Assembly: GCF_000022265.1 (NCBI RefSeq)
Contig: NC_011979.1
Location: 330,001 to 362,000 of the forward strand
DNA length: 32,000 nucleotides
From: Geotalea daltonii FRC-32
Lineage (GTDB): Bacteria > Desulfobacterota > Desulfuromonadia > Geobacterales > Geobacteraceae
Direction of reading: 5' to 3'
How positions within the stretch are numbered: position 1 is the first letter of the stretch; each line of letters begins with the position of its first letter. The notes under the pieces are model-generated. The model did no database searches. It saw nothing but the letters and a program-made list of their open reading frames with translations, and was not told the DNA's origin. This document shows positions 2,769 through 9,587 of the stretch, piece after piece. The position numbers and the translations under genes are program-made.

Positions 2769-2813
2769 GCAAGCCCTTGCGGGTAAACACTATGATTGGG
2801 AGAAGATAAAGAA

Positions 2814-4544
2814 ATGGACAAGATTTTACGCGTCAACATGACCGACCTCACCACCAGGACCGAGCCGGTACCGGCCGCCTGGGCCGGTTTGGGGGGCCGT
2901 GCCCTTACCTCCACCATTGTTGCGGCCGAAGTGCCTGCCACCTGCCATGCCCTGGGTGAGAACAACAAGCTGGTCTTTGCCCCCGGGCTTCTCACCGGTA
3001 CCCCTGCCGCCAACTCAGGCCGCCTCTCTGCAGGGGCCAAGAGCCCGCTTACGGGCACCATCAAAGAATCGAACGCCGGCGGCACTGCGGCCCAGATGCT
3101 GGCCCGCCTTGGGGTCAAGGCCCTGATCATCGAGGGGCTGCCCAAAGCGGACAAGTGGTACAGCCTCCATGTCTCCAAGGACGGCGTCACTGTGCAGGAG
3201 GAGAGCGAGCTGATCGGCAAGGGCAACTTCGCCGTCATCGAGGCACTGGAAGCCCGCCTCGGCAAGAAGACCGGCATCCTCACCATCGGTCCGGCAGGTG
3301 AGCTGAAGATGACCGCCGCCAACATCTCGGTCAAGGACCCGGACAGCAAGATCCGCAGCCATGGCCGTGGCGGGCTGGGGGCCGTCATGGGTTCCAAGAA
3401 GATCAAGTTCATCACCATCAATGACGAAGGGGCACCGGGCGTGAAGATTGCCGACCCGGAGAAATTCAAGGTGGCCGCCCGCACCTTTGCCAAGGCGCTC
3501 CTGGATCATCCGGTCAGCGGCGAGGGGCTCCCCACTTACGGCACCAACGTTCTCGTCAACATCCTCAACGAGGCGGGGGGGCTGCCGACGAAAAACTTCA
3601 CCCTCGGCCAGTTCGAGGGGCACGACAAGATCTCGGGTGAGACCTTGCACGATACCATCGTTGCCCGCGGTGGCAAGCCGAAGCACGGCTGTCACGCCGG
3701 CTGCATCATCCAGTGCTCCCAGGTCTACCACGACAAGGATGGCAAGTACGTTACCTCCGGTTTCGAATACGAGACCATCTGGGGGCTCGGCGCCGACTGC
3801 TGCATCGACAACCTGGATGACATCGCCCTGGCGGACAACATCATGGACGATATCGGCGTCGATTCCATCGAGACGGCGGTCATGTTCGGCGTGGCCATGG
3901 AGGCAGGCATTCTTTCCTTTGGCGACAGCAAGGAGATGCTGCGCCTGCTCAGGGACGAAATCGGCACAGGCACACCCCTCGGCCGCATCCTGGGTGGCGG
4001 CGCCGCCAGCGTCGGCAAGGCCTACGGCGTTACAAGGGTCCCGGTGGTGAAGAACCAGGCGATTCCCGCCTATGACCCCCGTTCGGTCAAGGGGATCGGC
4101 ATCACCTACGCCACTTCCACCATGGGAGCGGACCACACCTCCGGTTACACCATCGCCACCAACATCCTTAATGTGGGAGGTTTCGTCGATCCGTTGAAGA
4201 AGGACGGCCAAGTCGAGCTTTCCCGCAACCTGCAGATTGCCACCGCAGCCGTCGATTCCACCGGCATGTGCATCTTCGTCGCCTTCCCGGCCCTGGATAT
4301 TCCCGAATGCCTTCCCGCCCTGATCGACATGATCAATGCCCGCTTCGGCATCTCGCTTACCGGGGACGATGTCACCGACCTGGGAAAACAGGTGCTGAAG
4401 ACCGAGCGCCAATTCAATATCGAGGCGGGCTTCACCAAGGAGCACGACCGTCTGCCCGAGTTCTTCAAGACGGAGCCGGTGGCGCCTCACAATGCGGTCT
4501 GGGACTTCAGCGATGAGGAAATCGACGAGTTCTGGAACTTCTAA
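2814..4544 (+). CDS. aor: Tungsten-containing aldehyde:ferredoxin oxidoreductase (AOR family)
   Basis: MDKILRVNMTDLTTRTEPVP... is a typical AOR N-terminus. The AOR N-domain is followed by the Cys-rich HGCHAGCIIQC segment and the distal DSTGMCIFVAF cluster-ligand region. ATG 2814 has a GGGAGAAG SD; track start 2796 is a TTG. Confidence 0.9.
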   Translation: MDKILRVNMTDLTTRTEPVPAAWAGLGGRALTSTIVAAEVPATCHALGENNKLVFAPGLLTGTPAANSGRLSAGAKSPLTGTIKESNAGGTAAQMLARLGVKALIIEGLPKADKWYSLHVSKDGVTVQEESELIGKGNFAVIEALEARLGKKTGILTIGPAGELKMTAANISVKDPDSKIRSHGRGGLGAVMGSKKIKFITINDEGAPGVKIADPEKFKVAARTFAKALLDHPVSGEGLPTYGTNVLVNILNEAGGLPTKNFTLGQFEGHDKISGETLHDTIVARGGKPKHGCHAGCIIQCSQVYHDKDGKYVTSGFEYETIWGLGADCCIDNLDDIALADNIMDDIGVDSIETAVMFGVAMEAGILSFGDSKEMLRLLRDEIGTGTPLGRILGGGAASVGKAYGVTRVPVVKNQAIPAYDPRSVKGIGITYATSTMGADHTSGYTIATNILNVGGFVDPLKKDGQVELSRNLQIATAAVDSTGMCIFVAFPALDIPECLPALIDMINARFGISLTGDDVTDLGKQVLKTERQFNIEAGFTKEHDRLPEFFKTEPVAPHNAVWDFSDEEIDEFWNF

Positions 4545-4612: not shown

Positions 4613-4837
4613 GTGAATATTACCGTCAAACTATTTGCCACCTTCAGAAACGGCCGGTTCAAGATCGACAACCAGGAGTGGCCTGAAGGGACGGATTGCC
4701 GCAGGATCGTTGCCAGCCTGGGGCTTACGGAAGAGGAGATCGGCATCGTCCTGATCAATGGCCGGCATGTTCCCCTGGAGCAGCAGTTGGCGCAGGCCGA
4801 TACTCTTTCACTTTTCCCGCTGGTAGGAGGGGGTTGA
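4613..4837 (+). CDS. MoaD/ThiS-family small sulfur-carrier-like protein (C-terminal GG)
   Basis: 74 aa with a GTG start and a GAGG SD. A ubiquitin-like small protein ending ...LFPLVGGG, the hallmark of MoaD/ThiS carriers. Its stop lies 1 nt before the thiF-like start. Confidence 0.75.
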   Translation: MNITVKLFATFRNGRFKIDNQEWPEGTDCRRIVASLGLTEEEIGIVLINGRHVPLEQQLAQADTLSLFPLVGGG

Positions 4838-4838
4838 T

Positions 4839-5687
4839 ATGGATGCAGTGCTGCAGTACCTGTGGAGCAAGGCGGAAGGGGACCTTGTGCCCTGGTCTGC
4901 CCAATCGGAAGCGGTCCGGCAGTTCGGCTTGAGCTACGGGCAAGTGGAAAGCCTGATCCTGGAGAAGGGGCTGTTGCCAGCCCGCTACCAGCGCAACCGC
5001 ACCACGGTTTCCACCATCGAGCAGCGACAGCTGTTCAACAGCCGGGTGGCGGTCATCGGCTGCGGCGGCCTGGGGGGCTACATCATCGAGGAACTGGCCA
5101 GGCTGGGGGTCGGGCAGATTGTCGCCATCGATCCGGACATCTTCGAGGAACACAACCTCAACCGACAACTGTTTTCGAGCCCCCATGCCCTCGGCAAGCC
5201 TAAGGTTGAGGCTGCTGCGGCCCGCGTCAGCGAGATAAATCCGGCGGTCAACCTGGTACCGGTCCAGGAGGCTTTCACCACCGCCAACGGGAAGCAACTC
5301 CTGCAGGGGGTGACGGTTGCGGTCGACGCCCTGGACAGCATCGCCTATCGCCTGGAACTGGCGGAAGTTTGCAGCGAGATGGACATCCCCATGGTCTACG
5401 GGGCCATCGGCGGCTGGTACGGCCACGTTGCTACCCAGCTGCCGGGGGACACCACCATCCAGCGCACCTATCGCAACTGGGTGGAAGGGAAGGGAATCGA
5501 AAAGCAGCTGGGCAACCCCTCCTTCACTCCGGCGGTGGTAGCGAGCCTGCAGGTGGCGGAGGTCTGCAAGATCCTCCTCGGCAAAGGGGAGCTCCTGCGT
5601 CATCGGAAGTTAAGCATCGACCTCCTGGAGATGGAGATTTTCGATGTCTCGTATGCGGCGCTTGCGGAGCTGGTGCGTGCGGCGTAA
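4839..5687 (+). CDS. ThiF/MoeB/HesA-family E1-like adenylyltransferase
   Basis: VAVIGCGGLGGYIIEELARLGVGQIVAIDPDIFEEHNLNRQ is the Rossmann/ATP motif of the ThiF/MoeB family. It has a roughly 65-aa N-terminal extension and no CxxC pairs. It appears translationally coupled to the MoaD-like gene. Confidence 0.85.
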   Translation: MDAVLQYLWSKAEGDLVPWSAQSEAVRQFGLSYGQVESLILEKGLLPARYQRNRTTVSTIEQRQLFNSRVAVIGCGGLGGYIIEELARLGVGQIVAIDPDIFEEHNLNRQLFSSPHALGKPKVEAAAARVSEINPAVNLVPVQEAFTTANGKQLLQGVTVAVDALDSIAYRLELAEVCSEMDIPMVYGAIGGWYGHVATQLPGDTTIQRTYRNWVEGKGIEKQLGNPSFTPAVVASLQVAEVCKILLGKGELLRHRKLSIDLLEMEIFDVSYAALAELVRAA

Positions 5688-5728: not shown

Positions 5729-5761
5729 AAGTGGAAACTCCATTTTGAGGAGGATGTCACC

Positions 5762-6190
5762 ATGAACATCAGTGCGAGAAATCTCCTGTCGGGCAAGGTT
5801 ACAACGGTCAGAAAAGGGGCAATAAACTCCGAGGTTGAACTTTCCCTTGATGGAGGGGAAACGATTGCAGCGGTCATTACCAATGCCAGCCTGGAAGAAA
5901 TGGGAATCAAGGAAGGCATGGAGGCATTCGCCCTTGTCAAGGCCCCGCTGGTTATTATCGCCAAGGGAAACACCGGGCTCAAATTCAGCGCCCGTAACGT
6001 CCTGCAGGGCACGGTCAAGAAAATCGCACAGGGCAGTGTCAATGCAGAGATCTCCATACAACTGCAGGGGAGTGGTATCATCACCTCCATCATCACCAAA
6101 GGGAGCGTCGCTGCCATGGCATTGCAGGAAGGGGATCAGGTCAGCGCCATCTTCAAGGCCTCCAGTGTCATACTTGCCGTAAAGGCATAG
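5762..6190 (+). CDS. mop: Di-Mop (tandem TOBE) molbindin, molybdate/tungstate-binding protein
   Basis: ATG 5762 follows GAGGAGG. There are two repeats, each starting with the Mop signature (NISARNLLSGKV... and KFSARNVLQGTV...). The track ORF from 5369 is an artefactual extension that overlaps the thiF-like gene. Confidence 0.85.
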   Translation: MNISARNLLSGKVTTVRKGAINSEVELSLDGGETIAAVITNASLEEMGIKEGMEAFALVKAPLVIIAKGNTGLKFSARNVLQGTVKKIAQGSVNAEISIQLQGSGIITSIITKGSVAAMALQEGDQVSAIFKASSVILAVKA

Positions 6191-6196
6191 GGCCGA

Positions 6197-6233
6197 TTTA
6201 CTGCTTGACAGATTAATGACATAATGGTACTAG
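6197..6233 (+). promoter_or_regulatory. Candidate sigma70 promoter(s) ahead of riboswitch copy B
   Basis: Option 1 is TTGACA (6205-6210), 17 nt, TACTAG (6228-6233). Overlapping option 2 is TTTACT (6197-6202), 17 nt, CATAAT (6220-6225). Confidence 0.45.
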
Positions 6234-6257
6234 TTTACCACAATTGAATGCTCGAAC

Positions 6258-6354
6258 TTTCTCCGAGCCTGTCCGCCTACCGGGAATATTCCCCATGGTG
6301 TCAGGCCTGTGGGCTCTGCTGGAAACGGCAGGACCTTCCTTTGAAAAGGAGAAC
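6258..6354 (+). promoter_or_regulatory. Moco/Tuco-class riboswitch aptamer, copy B
   Basis: CUCCGAGCC (6261-6269), a CUGCUG-GAAA-CGGCAG hairpin, and AAAAGGAG (6344-6351). The P1 extension UUCUCC/GGAGAA covaries with copy C. The core reads GACCUUCC where copies A and C have GCCUCCC. Confidence 0.75.
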
Positions 6355-6380
6355 CTCTCGCCACGCTATGATTGCGTTCT

Positions 6381-6416
6381 AGGGGCTCCTTTATCCAAAG
6401 GAGCCCTTTTTGTTTG
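6381..6416 (+). terminator. Intrinsic terminator forming the expression platform of riboswitch copy B
   Basis: AGGGGCUCCUUU-AUCC-AAAGGAGCCCU is followed by UUUUUGUUUG. Its 5' arm CUCCUUU (6386-6392) is also complementary to the aptamer's 3' strand AAAGGAG (6345-6351), which gives a P1/antiterminator/terminator arrangement. Confidence 0.8.
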
Positions 6417-6469
6417 TGGCTGATCACGTGCTTCGAACATGACTTCAAAACCAGATAAATGATTCTCAA

Positions 6470-6563
6470 CTCTCCGAGCCACGCCGCCTAAAGGGTAGTT
6501 TTCCCATGGCGACCGGCTAGGGTGCCGCTGGAAACGGCTGTGCCTCCCTTTTGGAAAGGAGAG
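6470..6563 (+). promoter_or_regulatory. Moco/Tuco-class riboswitch aptamer, copy C
   Basis: CUCUCCGAGCC (6470-6480), the GCUGGAAACGGC hairpin, GCCUCCC (6542-6548) and GGAAAGGAGAG (6553-6563). P1 CUCUCC/GGAGAG is 6 bp. The porin start lies 116 nt downstream. Confidence 0.8.
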
Positions 6564-6678
6564 CCTCAAAGTACCGGACCTGTTCCTGTATCCAAAGGCC
6601 TCTTTCCATCTGCGGACAGACTCTTTGATGCATTTGGGGGAGACCTTTTCCCCTGTTATTAGAAAACAGGAGGGTACG

Positions 6679-7920
6679 ATGAAGAAACGCAGCTTAGCAG
6701 CAACAGTGGTGGCAATGGGCCTGGTGCTCATCCCGGGTGTTCATGCCAAAACGCTTGAGGATGTGCTCAAGGAGAAAGGGGTCATCACCGAAGAGGATTA
6801 CAAGGAAGTAACCAGGAGCAAGGCGCTGAATTACAAGCCGGGCAAGGGGTTCACCCTGACCTCTGCCGACGAAAAGTTTCAGCTTTCTTTGGGAGGAAGG
6901 CTCCAGACCCGTTACACCTTCACGGATGCCGACGACAACGGTACCAGCAGGGACTCCAACAAGTTTGAGGTCAAGCGCATGAAGTTCTGGCTGAATGGCT
7001 ACGCCTACACCAAGGACCTCACTTACCTGCTCCAGGTGGATTTTGTTCAGGGTGGCTCATCGAAGCTCCTGGATCATGCCTACCTGAATTACCGGTTTGT
7101 CGACGAAGCTCAGGTTCTGGCCGGGCAGACCAAGGTGCCGTTCGGCCGGCAATGGCTGAATTCTTCCGGTTCCCAGCAGTTCGTCGACCGCTCCACCGCT
7201 TCGGACATGTTCCGCCCCGGTTATGAGGCTGGAGTCAAGGTTCACGGAGCTGTGGCCGGCGGCATCGCCACCTACGAGCTGGGTTATTATGGCGGCGCCG
7301 GCCAGAGTACCTTCCGTACCTCCAACGACAATGCCTATGCCGCCAGGATAACCGCAAACCCATTCGGTAAGATGGCCTATGCCGAAGGGGACCTGGATCA
7401 GAGCGAAAAACCTCTCCTTTCGGTGGGAGCCAACTATTATCGTAATACCCTGCAGAAAAGCACAGCTACCGCCTTCGAAACCAACAATGTTACGTTAGCC
7501 GGTTCAACCGGCTGGCTCGGCAAAGGAATTGGTACCTTTGCAAACGGGGAAAAGATCGACATCAACGGCTACGGCGTCGATGCCGCTTTCAAATGGCTTG
7601 GCGCCTCCACCCAGGCCGAGTACCTGTTGGGGCAGGCCGACGGCCACACCAGCGACAAGACCCTCCGTGCCCACGGCTTCTATGCTCAGGCCGGTTACTG
7701 CATCATTCCGAGGAAACTGGAGCTGGCCTTCCGCTACTCCTTCGTCGATCCCAACCGGGACAAGGCCAACGATCAGCAGGTCGACACCCAGGGAGCCATT
7801 TCCTACTATTTCAACAAGCACAACCTGAAGCTGCAGGGGGATGTCACCAACAGCCACGACCAGAGCAAAGGCCGAACGGATGATATGATCTATCGCCTCC
7901 AGGCACAGGTGATCTTTTAA
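6679..7920 (+). CDS. Outer-membrane anion porin, phosphate-selective porin O/P (OprO/OprP)-like
   Basis: ATG 6679 follows AGGAGGG. Signal peptide MKKRSLAATVVAMGLVLIPGVHA. Alternating beta-strand pattern and a C-terminal ...YRLQAQVIF with terminal Phe, typical of OM beta-barrels. FQLSLGGRLQTRY and FEVKRMKFWLNG resemble the Porin_O_P family. Confidence 0.65.
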   Translation: MKKRSLAATVVAMGLVLIPGVHAKTLEDVLKEKGVITEEDYKEVTRSKALNYKPGKGFTLTSADEKFQLSLGGRLQTRYTFTDADDNGTSRDSNKFEVKRMKFWLNGYAYTKDLTYLLQVDFVQGGSSKLLDHAYLNYRFVDEAQVLAGQTKVPFGRQWLNSSGSQQFVDRSTASDMFRPGYEAGVKVHGAVAGGIATYELGYYGGAGQSTFRTSNDNAYAARITANPFGKMAYAEGDLDQSEKPLLSVGANYYRNTLQKSTATAFETNNVTLAGSTGWLGKGIGTFANGEKIDINGYGVDAAFKWLGASTQAEYLLGQADGHTSDKTLRAHGFYAQAGYCIIPRKLELAFRYSFVDPNRDKANDQQVDTQGAISYYFNKHNLKLQGDVTNSHDQSKGRTDDMIYRLQAQVIF

Positions 7921-7934
7921 AAACAGTTAAAAAG

Positions 7935-7954
7935 ACAGGGGGCTTGCCCCCTGT
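7935..7954 (+). terminator. Hairpin after the porin gene (weak terminator or attenuator)
   Basis: ACAGGGGGC-UU-GCCCCCUGU is followed by UUCCC and preceded by AAAAAG. The U-tract is poor. Confidence 0.35.
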
Positions 7955-8042: not shown

Positions 8043-8855
8043 ATGAAACAGTGGCGTATCCTTTTATTAACATTGACCTCCCTTGCTTTCTTCTGCGCTT
8101 CGGCCGGAGCCGAAGAACGCCTGAAGATGTCCACTACCACTTCGACCCAGGATTCGGGGCTTTTGAAGGTGCTCCTGCCACCCTTCGAGAAGAAAAATAA
8201 CTGCCAGGTGGACGTTATCGCCGTCGGCACCGGCCAGTCCCTCAAGCTGGGTGAAGCTGGCGACGTGGATGTGGTCTTCGTCCATGCCAGGAAGCTGGAA
8301 GACAAATTCATTGCCGACGGTTTCGGCGTCAACCGCCGCGACGTCATGTACAACGATTTCGTCATCATCGGGCCGAAGGATGATCCGGCCGGAATAGCCA
8401 GGGCCAAAACCGCTGCCGAGGCGCTGCAGATGATTGCCGCCAAAGGAGCCACCTTTGTTTCCCGTGGAGACAAATCGGGAACCCACATCAAGGAAAAGGA
8501 TCTCTGGCAGGCGGCCGGAATTGCGCCGAAGGGGGGGTGGTATGTGGAGGCGGGCCAGGGGATGGGGCCGGTCATTACCATGGCAACCGAGCGCCGAGGC
8601 TACACCCTGACTGATCGCGGGACCTACAACGCTTTCAAGGGAAAGAAGACCGATCTGACCGTCCTCTTCCAGGGGGAGAAGGGGCTTTTCAATCCCTATG
8701 GGGTCATAGCCGTAAATCCCAGGAAACATCCCCATGTGAAGTACGACCTGGCAATGAAGTTTATCGAGTATGTGACCGGACCGGAGGGCCAGAAAATCAT
8801 TGCCGGTTACAAGGCATACGGGGAGCCGGTGTTTTTCATCTACGGCAAGAAGTAG
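8043..8855 (+). CDS. tupA: Tungstate ABC transporter periplasmic binding protein (TupA family)
   Basis: A signal peptide ending ASAGA, then KMSTTTSTQDSGLL, which carries the TTTS motif characteristic of TupA. PBP fold length is 270 aa. The SD is AAAGGAGAA. Confidence 0.8.
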   Translation: MKQWRILLLTLTSLAFFCASAGAEERLKMSTTTSTQDSGLLKVLLPPFEKKNNCQVDVIAVGTGQSLKLGEAGDVDVVFVHARKLEDKFIADGFGVNRRDVMYNDFVIIGPKDDPAGIARAKTAAEALQMIAAKGATFVSRGDKSGTHIKEKDLWQAAGIAPKGGWYVEAGQGMGPVITMATERRGYTLTDRGTYNAFKGKKTDLTVLFQGEKGLFNPYGVIAVNPRKHPHVKYDLAMKFIEYVTGPEGQKIIAGYKAYGEPVFFIYGKK

Positions 8856-8873: not shown

Positions 8874-9587
8874 ATGCAGAACATCATCGAACTGCAAAAC
8901 GTAGCGAAGAATTATGGCAACACAATTGCCTTGCAGCTGAACCGGCTGGCCATAGGGGAGGGTGAGTTGTATCTTCTTGCCGGGCCGAACGGCTCCGGCA
9001 AGAGCACTCTTCTAAACATACTGGGTTTTTTGACTCGCCCGGATCGAGGGGAACTGCTTTTCTCCGGCGAGCGGGTCGATTGGAAGAGGGGAACAATGAC
9101 CCGTTTGCGCCGGCAAGTCACCCTTCTCCACCAGTCCCCCTACCTTTTTCGCGGCAACGTTTACGATAATGTCGCGTATGGCCTTTCCCTGCGAGGCATG
9201 GGAGGTGCCAAGGCACAGGAAGTTGTGTCTGAAACCCTGGCTACTGTCGGGCTTGACGGATTCCAATTGCGCAAGCACACGGAACTGTCGGGGGGCGAAG
9301 CCCAGCGGGTAGCCATGGCCAGGGCGCTGGCACTGAGGCCGAAGTTGCTGCTCCTGGATGAGCCGCTGGCCAACGTGGACCAGAAGAGCGCCCGCGTCCT
9401 TGAAGAAGTCATAGCCGGCCTCCCTTCCATGGGGACCACGGTGGTCATGTCTTCCCACGACCCGCAACATGAAAAAAAGCTTCCCTGCCAAGTGATCCAG
9501 CTGCAAGGGGGGCGGATGAATGCCGATCATCTGGATGAGACCGAGTCCCTTGGCAATCTGCTTGGCTATCCTGCTGTTCAGATCTGA
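8874..9587 (+). CDS. ABC transporter ATP-binding protein (TupC-like)
   Basis: Walker A GPNGSGKST, signature LSGGEAQRV, Walker B LLLLDEP and an H-loop SSHD. It starts 18 nt after tupA. No transmembrane subunit gene is adjacent. Confidence 0.85.
   Translation: MQNIIELQNVAKNYGNTIALQLNRLAIGEGELYLLAGPNGSGKSTLLNILGFLTRPDRGELLFSGERVDWKRGTMTRLRRQVTLLHQSPYLFRGNVYDNVAYGLSLRGMGGAKAQEVVSETLATVGLDGFQLRKHTELSGGEAQRVAMARALALRPKLLLLDEPLANVDQKSARVLEEVIAGLPSMGTTVVMSSHDPQHEKKLPCQVIQLQGGRMNADHLDETESLGNLLGYPAVQI

Follow-up and report, generated by a model that had tools for sequence, protein, structure and literature searches.

An OprP-like porin behind tandem Moco/Tuco riboswitches as a candidate outer-membrane channel for tungstate and molybdate

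How do tungstate and molybdate cross the outer membrane (OM) of bacteria that depend on them? Models of their uptake begin at the periplasmic binding protein, and the OM crossing is taken as non-specific. Sediments and groundwater usually contain very little tungstate, so that OM flux could limit the tungsten enzymes of Geobacter, such as aldehyde:ferredoxin oxidoreductase (AOR) and BamB, a benzoyl-CoA reductase. The question is raised by a stretch of 32,000 nucleotides from Geotalea daltonii FRC-32 (contig NC_011979.1, positions 330,001 to 362,000; "the window", whose own numbering is used below), in which a porin gene of 413 codons (6679-7920, + strand) lies between two riboswitch aptamers for molybdenum or tungsten cofactor (Moco/Tuco) and a gene for a tungstate-binding protein, tupA. 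The original prediction, made from the sequence of this locus, saw in it the first gene of a riboswitch-controlled tup operon and a candidate tungstate/molybdate channel. Following up this proposal, we consider it reasonably likely, from genomic and regulatory context, that the porin is the OM entry channel for tungstate, and it probably also passes the near-isosteric molybdate. Since the layout with a porin behind riboswitches and ahead of tup genes recurs in many relatives, this channel is probably an uncharacterised first step of tungstate/molybdate uptake.

The open reading frame of the porin spans 6625 to 7920 on the + strand, and the ATG at 6679 is its likely start because a ribosome-binding site (RBS; AGGAGGG) lies just 5' of it and a 98%-identical homolog of 413 amino acids (P0002) aligns over the full length. 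The nearest public protein is a "porin" of Geotalea toluenoxydans with 98% identity. As had been proposed, the translation begins with a signal peptide (23 residues, 6679-6747, + strand; MKKRSLAATVVAMGLVLIPGVHA, with cleavage read between ...VHA and KT) and ends in ...QAQVIF with a terminal phenylalanine, and the predicted beta-barrel and resemblance to OprP/OprO were likewise recovered. An hmmscan search matched Pfam family Porin_O_P (PF07396) with 90 bits against a cutoff of 20.9 (E=2.4e-25), covering porin residues 71-401 and profile positions 3-353 of 370. AlphaFold gave a pLDDT of only 29.5 on the single sequence, hence we used a model (AF2) based on an alignment of 120 sequences, which is a confident beta-barrel (pLDDT 87.6, pTM 0.82) with a pLDDT below 50 for the signal peptide (residues 1-23). 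Of the solved structures, Foldseek matched it best to OprP (2o4v, E=1.2e-20, TM 0.70) and OprO (4rjw, TM 0.66), with all general porins ranking below them. OprP is also the sole match in the PDB by sequence (E=1.5e-4), and hhalign aligns the porin to OprP residues 13-310 with 96.8% probability. No NCBIfam model matches the porin at E<=1e-5, including the model NF040900 for the porin-like protein ExtI. Judged by its sequence, the protein belongs to the Porin_O_P superfamily and has a basic constriction like that of OprP, but it is not a close relative of OprP/OprO.

A separate feature of the protein, and one that sets it apart from OprP/OprO, is a conserved N-terminal helical extension formed by residues 24-48 (6748-6822). 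This near-invariant segment, KTLEDVLKEKGVITEEDYKEV, occurs family-wide, is encoded 5' of the barrel and is predicted to form two short helices. It lies outside the stretch aligned to OprP, whose residues before 13 are lacking from the alignment, and possible roles include a periplasmic contact or trimerisation.

The regulatory context of the porin is laid out in the leader that precedes it on the + strand. Two overlapping sigma-70-like promoter candidates for a leader-porin transcript (6197-6244; 9 of 12 matches each in a consensus scan, one with an extended -10 TG) sit right 3' of the mop stop codon at 6190 and are putative, as they rest on consensus match. Directly 5' of the porin, as originally described, lie two aptamers that are full-length matches to Rfam model RF01055 (gathering score 36), namely aptamer 1 at 6249-6367 (61.9 bits, E=9.6e-13; 106.6 bits with our own covariance model) and aptamer 2 at 6460-6577 (61.6 bits, E=1.2e-12; 97.8 bits). 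The window aptamers carry the conserved GGAAAC and AAAGGAG elements. In the Rfam alignment, the columns of stem P3 are deleted in both of them as well as in a third aptamer of the window (see below), and P3 is lacking in 27 of 27 aligned aptamers of relatives; we know of no biochemical demonstration of Tuco as the ligand of such P3-less RF01055 aptamers. Regulski et al. 2008 (PMC2408646) reported that P3-less aptamers correlate with tungsten-cofactor metabolism. They also described tandem aptamers in S. wolfei as well as in G. metallireducens and reasoned that a tandem makes the response more digital.

Aptamer 1 has as its expression platform a clear intrinsic terminator (6381-6408 or, as annotated, 6381-6418, + strand; 12-bp GC-rich stem with 6 G-C pairs, 4-nucleotide loop, T-run) that is present in both the minimum free energy (MFE) and the centroid fold. 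Its 5' arm CTCCTTT could pair with the 3' AAAGGAG of aptamer 1, which would amount to the usual OFF-switch logic. The leader between aptamer 2 and the start codon (6578-6678, + strand) has a hairpin at 6636-6653 and the RBS at about 6669-6675. In the MFE fold, ACCUGUU (from 6578) pairs with AACAGG of the RBS region, with a z-score of only -1.06 that is not better than shuffles, and the expression platform of aptamer 2 may consist of this weak hairpin and pairing of the RBS region.

If this arrangement is functionally meaningful, it should recur in relatives. We therefore compared 106 loci with porin homologs (40 from species-representative genomes, 60 from metagenomes and 6 from a look-up of exact proteins), which were annotated by tblastn with proteins of the window and the loci, Pfam/NCBIfam, Rfam, our own covariance model and a ModE-box score. 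A regular expression for the aptamers missed about 40% of the Rfam matches, so that Rfam scans and our own covariance model were used instead. One or two Moco/Tuco aptamers, often in tandem, lie 5' of the porin in 18 of the 106 loci. Another 20 have a canonical operator of the regulator ModE, almost always 50 to 220 nucleotides 5' of the porin or of a modE-porin pair, with 21 sites of the pattern CGyTATATA-N6-TATATArCG compared to a single one in 976 kb of shuffled sequence. The exact ModE-box pattern had no match in the first 40 loci, where consensus scoring then gave one site (L026), and all strong sites come from metagenome and Deferrimicrobiaceae-like loci. Two independent Mo/W sensors, riboswitch and ModE operator, are thus recurrently linked to porins of relatives. 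In most of these loci the porin is followed by tupA(B)C or by modE-modD-modABC. Mo/W genes stand alongside the porin without a detected regulatory element in 9 loci, one of which (L028) is really sulfate-linked.

The order riboswitch(es), porin, tupA(B)C is found in L003, L004, L005, L007, L011, L012, L015, L018, L021, L023, L041, L044 and L054. Examples include Pelotalea chapellei, where tandem riboswitches precede porin-tupABC, and G. metallireducens (L041), where AOR-moaD-moeB is followed by a riboswitch and then by porin-tupA-tupB-tupC-moeA-moaC-mog. In Oryzomonas japonica the order is porin-modE-modD-modA-modB-modC, and the porin precedes modE-modD-modABC in L019 and L026. The Deferrimicrobiaceae-like lineage has a ModE box followed by porin-tupA(-tupA)-modE-tupB-tupC-moeA/moaC. 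In L008 a riboswitch lies directly 5' of the porin with no tup genes after it, indicating that the porin itself and not just its neighbour is the regulated gene. Co-occurrence with tup or mod genes, on which the original prediction had staked its case, is therefore conserved in Geotalea, Geobacter, Pelotalea, Oryzomonas and the Deferrimicrobiaceae-like lineage, and so is Mo/W-responsive control of porin-tup and porin-mod loci by a Tuco-type riboswitch or ModE operator. These results support an OprP-fold anion porin as a candidate promoter-proximal gene of tungstate/molybdate uptake clusters under Mo/W-cofactor control in at least two lineages.

Other members of the family stand in other contexts. 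At 8 of the 106 loci, the porin lies behind polyphosphate genes of the CHAD-Ppx/GppA type (L013, L016, L025, L037, L038, L048, L052 and L066), and at 3 (L028, L049 and L053) it is followed by genes for a sulfate-binding protein (NF008022, 543 bits) and CysTWA-like genes. About 49 loci have no assigned context; many of these hold remote homologs (26-45% identity) or are cut off by short contigs, and two-component systems adjoin several of them. The phosphate-type context belongs to distinct paralogs, which sometimes occur in the same genome as tup-linked ones, as in two metagenome-assembled genomes (MAGs) with L036 (tup) and L038 (Ppx) or with L003 and L010. Such coexistence argues for a division of labour over one all-purpose porin, and the Porin_O_P family resembles a collection of channels for oxyanions that each have an importer of their own.

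A neighbor-joining tree of 86 full-length homologs with 60 bootstraps recovered the clade of the window porin in 59 of 60 replicates, in its core and extended versions alike. A riboswitch, ModE box or tup/mod genes are present at 16 of the 19 loci in this clade, and one member has a riboswitch but no adjacent tup genes. A Deferrimicrobiaceae-like clade (59/60) uniformly has a ModE box and tup genes, while a third clade ("type B", 59/60) mixes Tup, Mod, sulfate (Sbp) and Ppx contexts.

How far the anion site of OprP is conserved was assessed with a list of functional residues from PMC5877670 and equivalences from the hhalign profile alignment (27% identity). We adopted this alignment where it differs by two residues from phmmer (around OprP R59-Y62), and the assignment of residues to the pore lining comes from alignment and strand periodicity rather than from model coordinates. 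Five of the eight central-site residues of OprP are kept (R34, D94, S124, S125 and R133, corresponding to R74, D132, S162, S163 and R171), K102, W159 and G164 stand in the places of Y62, K121 and K126, and the ladder pair R59/R60 corresponds to K99/R100. The mature porin has 18 arginines and 27 lysines, a total of 45 compared to the 47 basic residues quoted for OprP/OprO (PMC5877670). Among the 120 homologs, R78, R157, R171, R213, K305, R352 and K384 are invariant, and R100, K102, K112, R139, K152, R223, K244, R330, K345, R360 and R406 are at least 90% conserved. With regard to the periplasmic lysine cluster of OprP/OprO, the lysines conserved by sequence are K53, K102, K112, K152, K244, K305, K345 and K384. 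Two constriction positions differ between contexts. At position 133, which adjoins the D94 equivalent, the window clade has His/Tyr where Ppx-linked paralogs have Asp, and at position 159 (the K121 equivalent in loop L3) it has Trp where they have Glu (or Tyr). By analogy with periplasmic binding proteins, a loss of acidic groups at these positions would be chemically sensible for fully ionised WO4(2-)/MoO4(2-) compared to partly protonated phosphate. A universal residue signature of W/Mo versus phosphate was considered and dropped, as H133/W159 holds for the window clade but not for the tup-linked Deferrimicrobiaceae-like clade. The mixed-context clade is marked by a loss of R74 and R171.

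The mechanism that we propose would work as follows. A promoter at about 6200 would drive a leader with two complete Tuco-type aptamers, and scarcity of tungsten cofactor would leave both unliganded, pre-empt the terminator at 6381-6408 and allow synthesis of the porin, TupA and the ABC ATPase. Accumulating cofactor would trigger termination via aptamer 1, and aptamer 2 would act as a second checkpoint, possibly involving occlusion of the RBS, for a sharper response. The porin, a presumed OM beta-barrel of the trimeric porin type with OprP fold and positively charged constriction, would let more of the nanomolar oxyanion pass into the periplasm, in the way of OprP with phosphate, and high-affinity TupA would capture it there for the inner-membrane ABC importer. 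We infer the substrate, the direction of regulation, co-transcription with tupA and selectivity over phosphate and sulfate in this scheme.

Several observations weigh against this interpretation. Identity to OprP is only 18% in the structural match, and the loop-5 arginines of OprP (R218, R220, R222, R226 and R242) find no counterpart in the hhalign alignment, where their positions fall on a 10-residue gap or on T, A and L, with low alignment confidence in this loop. The Arg/Lys ladder, which the original prediction had proposed to look for, is thus only partly conserved, with 5 of 8 residues in the central site and none of the loop-5 arginines. The equivalent of OprP D94 is kept (D/E132), so that phosphate may permeate, and the tup-linked Deferrimicrobiaceae-like clade has the same D133/E159 as Ppx-linked porins, which means that there is no universal W/Mo signature. 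Three loci of the window clade have no Mo/W marker, namely L002, whose contig ends at the porin, L006, whose porin is flanked by DraT and a NifA-like activator, and L072. Moreover, the survey was seeded by the porin and therefore shows the contexts of the porin family, not the share of tup operons that lack one. A GC-rich hairpin just 3' of the porin stop codon (7935-7954, + strand; no U-tract on this strand) and a promoter-like site at 7781-7809 leave co-transcription of porin and tupA unproven, and no tupB permease gene was found between tupA and the ATPase gene or elsewhere in the 32-kb window by tblastn with TupB of L003. The "tup operon" thus stands as far as a tupA-like gene and an ABC ATPase gene 3' of the porin are concerned, though it is without tupB in the window and parted from the porin by the hairpin.

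The hairpin may cause partial termination or stabilise mRNA, possibly setting the porin:transporter expression ratio; it is identical in L011 and has another sequence at the same place in L007 (Geotalea sp. SG265, about 9255-9285). All three Geotalea clusters (window, L007 and L011) have porin-tupA-ATPase without tupB and a gap of only 18 nucleotides between tupA and the ATPase gene, while tupB sits between these genes in G. metallireducens and most other loci. Either the partner permease of Geotalea TupA is encoded elsewhere or the cluster is incomplete. As a separate observation, the porin of L072 (2292-7197; window clade, 69% identity, H133/W159) lies 3' of a gene for a TonB-dependent receptor and of one for an fn3 protein that weakly matches the N-terminal domain of purple acid phosphatases, with no Mo/W marker nearby.

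Alternatively, the porin may be an unspecialised channel for small anions that discriminates poorly, if at all, among tungstate, molybdate, sulfate and phosphate, and it would then be co-regulated with tup genes to raise OM permeability at cofactor shortage without being dedicated. In favour of this, tup-, mod-, sulfate- and Ppx-linked paralogs have the core basic residues as well as the L3 motif FGRQ..SS..VDR in common, and the shared D133/E159 of one tup-linked clade and the mixed contexts of the "type B" clade (Tup, Mod, Sbp, Ppx) point in the same direction. However, single genomes keep several paralogs of differing context, suggesting that they are not interchangeable, and positions 133 and 159 of the constriction are fixed differently in the window clade and the Ppx-linked clades. 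As no single W/Mo signature emerges, we give this explanation sizeable weight though we think it rather unlikely. That the protein is a phosphate- or polyphosphate-selective porin of the OprP/OprO type with incidental tup adjacency would fit its membership in Porin_O_P, OprP and OprO as closest solved structures, the five kept central phosphate-site residues including the D94 equivalent, and the name "phosphate-selective porin" in public sources. This is improbable, however, given two Tuco-type riboswitches directly 5' of the gene, a riboswitch or ModE operator 5' of the porin in 38 loci of relatives and a riboswitch that controls the porin alone in L008. Furthermore, the loop-5 arginine ladder of OprP is absent and its Y62, K121 and K126 have become K, W and G, and the CHAD-Ppx context is held by separate paralogs, with no Ppx or CHAD homolog in the 32-kb window (pst genes were not among the queries, and Pho boxes were not searched for).

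Another Mo/W-related solute, such as the thiomolybdate or thiotungstate species that prevail in sulfidic sediments or a pterin or cofactor precursor, seems very improbable as the substrate. The hosts are anaerobic sediment bacteria, a point of context only, and the cofactor-biosynthesis genes moaE, moeA and moaC are among the operon neighbours at several loci, but the immediate 3' partner is almost always the oxyanion-binding TupA or ModA and the conserved OprP-like central site suits a small tetrahedral anion. We therefore favour an entry channel for tungstate, and probably molybdate, as the function of the porin. A more far-reaching version, which we regard as doubtful, would have Porin_O_P of Desulfuromonadota and Deferrimicrobia-like bacteria radiated into dedicated tungstate, molybdate, sulfate and phosphate channels, each coupled genetically to a sensor (Tuco riboswitch, ModE operator or two-component system) and an ABC importer of its own, with the window clade truly W/Mo-selective through replacement of D133/E159 by His/Trp. 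Such selectivity would parallel the discrimination of protonated and fully ionised oxyanions by phosphate- and sulfate/molybdate-binding periplasmic proteins.

Compared to known systems, the porin shares the Pfam family, the barrel fold and the L3 constriction motif with OprP and OprO, the phosphate- and diphosphate-specific porins of Pseudomonas aeruginosa. The logic may also be alike, as OprP is a substrate-specific channel whose induction under scarcity of its anion goes along with that of an ABC system with a high-affinity periplasmic binding protein. Unlike OprP/OprO, the window porin is associated with Tuco-type riboswitches (or ModE operators in relatives) instead of phosphate starvation and with tup/mod instead of pst neighbours. 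A closer parallel in taxonomic terms is ExtI of Geobacter sulfurreducens, a porin-like protein implicated in selenite/tellurite reduction whose levels do not respond to phosphate limitation (PMC5877670). Like the window porin, it is a Porin_O_P-family protein of the Geobacteraceae that is annotated as phosphate-selective and argued to handle another oxyanion, but its gene lies in a cytochrome/rhodanese cluster as opposed to a tup/mod operon, and only a Ppx-linked paralog matches the ExtI model NF040900, weakly so with 44 bits against a cutoff of 150.

The tandem P3-less aptamers, here with an intrinsic terminator after the first unit, are canonical for Moco/Tuco riboswitch operons (RF01055), though unlike in the operons of Regulski et al. 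2008 the first regulated gene here is an OM porin. That study's main text (PMC2408646) names transporters along with enzymes that make or use the cofactor and nowhere contains the word "porin". Similarly, the porin heads otherwise textbook tupABC or modE-modD-modABC operons, and one porin lineage has a canonical ModE operator that fits the consensus given for E. coli in PMC2700814. No OM component belongs to the tup/mod systems described so far, whereas here an OM porin is added as the promoter-proximal gene. The RF01055 aptamers and ModE operators are in themselves standard; what is new is the porin as their target. Rodionov et al. 2004 described only Fur-linked porins, and Geobacter genome papers give the gene only as "phosphate-selective porin". 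We found no paper on a molybdate/tungstate OM porin or a porin under Moco riboswitch control among open-access papers and preprints, and an earlier mention elsewhere or in regulon databases is possible.

If our interpretation is true, a cofactor-regulated channel would fill a gap in the uptake pathway, and this would be the first case found of an OM porin under control of a Moco/Tuco riboswitch or ModE. Hundreds of "phosphate-selective porin OprO/OprP" annotations in these lineages would then probably be misnamed. The paralogous OprP-fold channels linked to W/Mo, sulfate and phosphate genes would form a natural series for the discrimination of near-identical tetrahedral anions, and G. metallireducens, with its ortholog between moeB and tupA (L041, 7001-8245), is genetically tractable.

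The surroundings of the porin form a tungsten module on the + strand from 2.6 to 9.6 kb. It begins with the third P3-less Moco/Tuco aptamer (2665-2779, + strand; Rfam 62.5 bits), whose 3' end lies about 17 nucleotides 5' of the annotated AOR start and which heads a block of genes for a tungsten-type AOR (2796-4544; Pfam AFOR_N/AFOR_C), a MoaD/ThiS-like protein (4613-4837; Pfam ThiS), a MoeB/ThiF-like protein (4839-5687; Pfam ThiF) and a Mop/di-TOBE molbindin (5759-6190; Pfam TOBE, NCBIfam Mop TIGR00638), all on the + strand. The same riboswitch-AOR-moaD-moeB-mop block lies 5' of the porin in L003, L007, L011 and G. metallireducens (L041). On the other side of the porin, also on the + strand, follow the genes for the TupA-like periplasmic tungstate-binding protein (8043-8855; PBP_like_2 E=2.1e-52, motif TTTSTQDSGLL) and a TupC-like ABC transporter ATPase (8874-9587; ABC_tran E=1.8e-29). 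The sole NCBIfam match of the former is tung_bind_TupA with 250 bits, under the equivalog cutoff of 400 bits, and the latter has generic NCBIfam matches and shares 50-87% identity with the ATPase encoded last in the tupABC of related loci. The next gene is convergent and encodes a Zn-dependent alcohol dehydrogenase.

A few further genes recur beside porins of the surveyed loci. A NifH-like gene (Fer4_NifH, about 290 amino acids) lies beside porin or mod genes in L019, L022, L026 (9468-10358), L028 (9382-10257), L062 and L065. Together with the porin of L006, located between DraT and an activator of the NifA-like sigma-54 type, this recurrence suggests a link of some porins to nitrogenase-related molybdenum demand. 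A conserved protein of about 250 amino acids without any Pfam family above threshold adjoins porins in L001 (485-1267), L043 (8487-9230 and 9257-10063) and L015 (11251-12057 and 12794-13666). It has weak similarity to TiaS-TCKD and methanogenesis marker 11, is 57% identical between L001 and L043, and is often paired with a protein of the amino-acid-kinase family and a Moco/Tuco riboswitch 5' of it. Speculatively, we take this kinase-fold partner to recall the subunits of the molybdenum storage protein. Finally, one MAG (Geobacter sp. clean984) has three window-clade porin paralogs on three contigs (L001, L002 and L027) that are 75-79% identical to the window protein, and two of them lie behind a riboswitch and a TiaS-like open reading frame.

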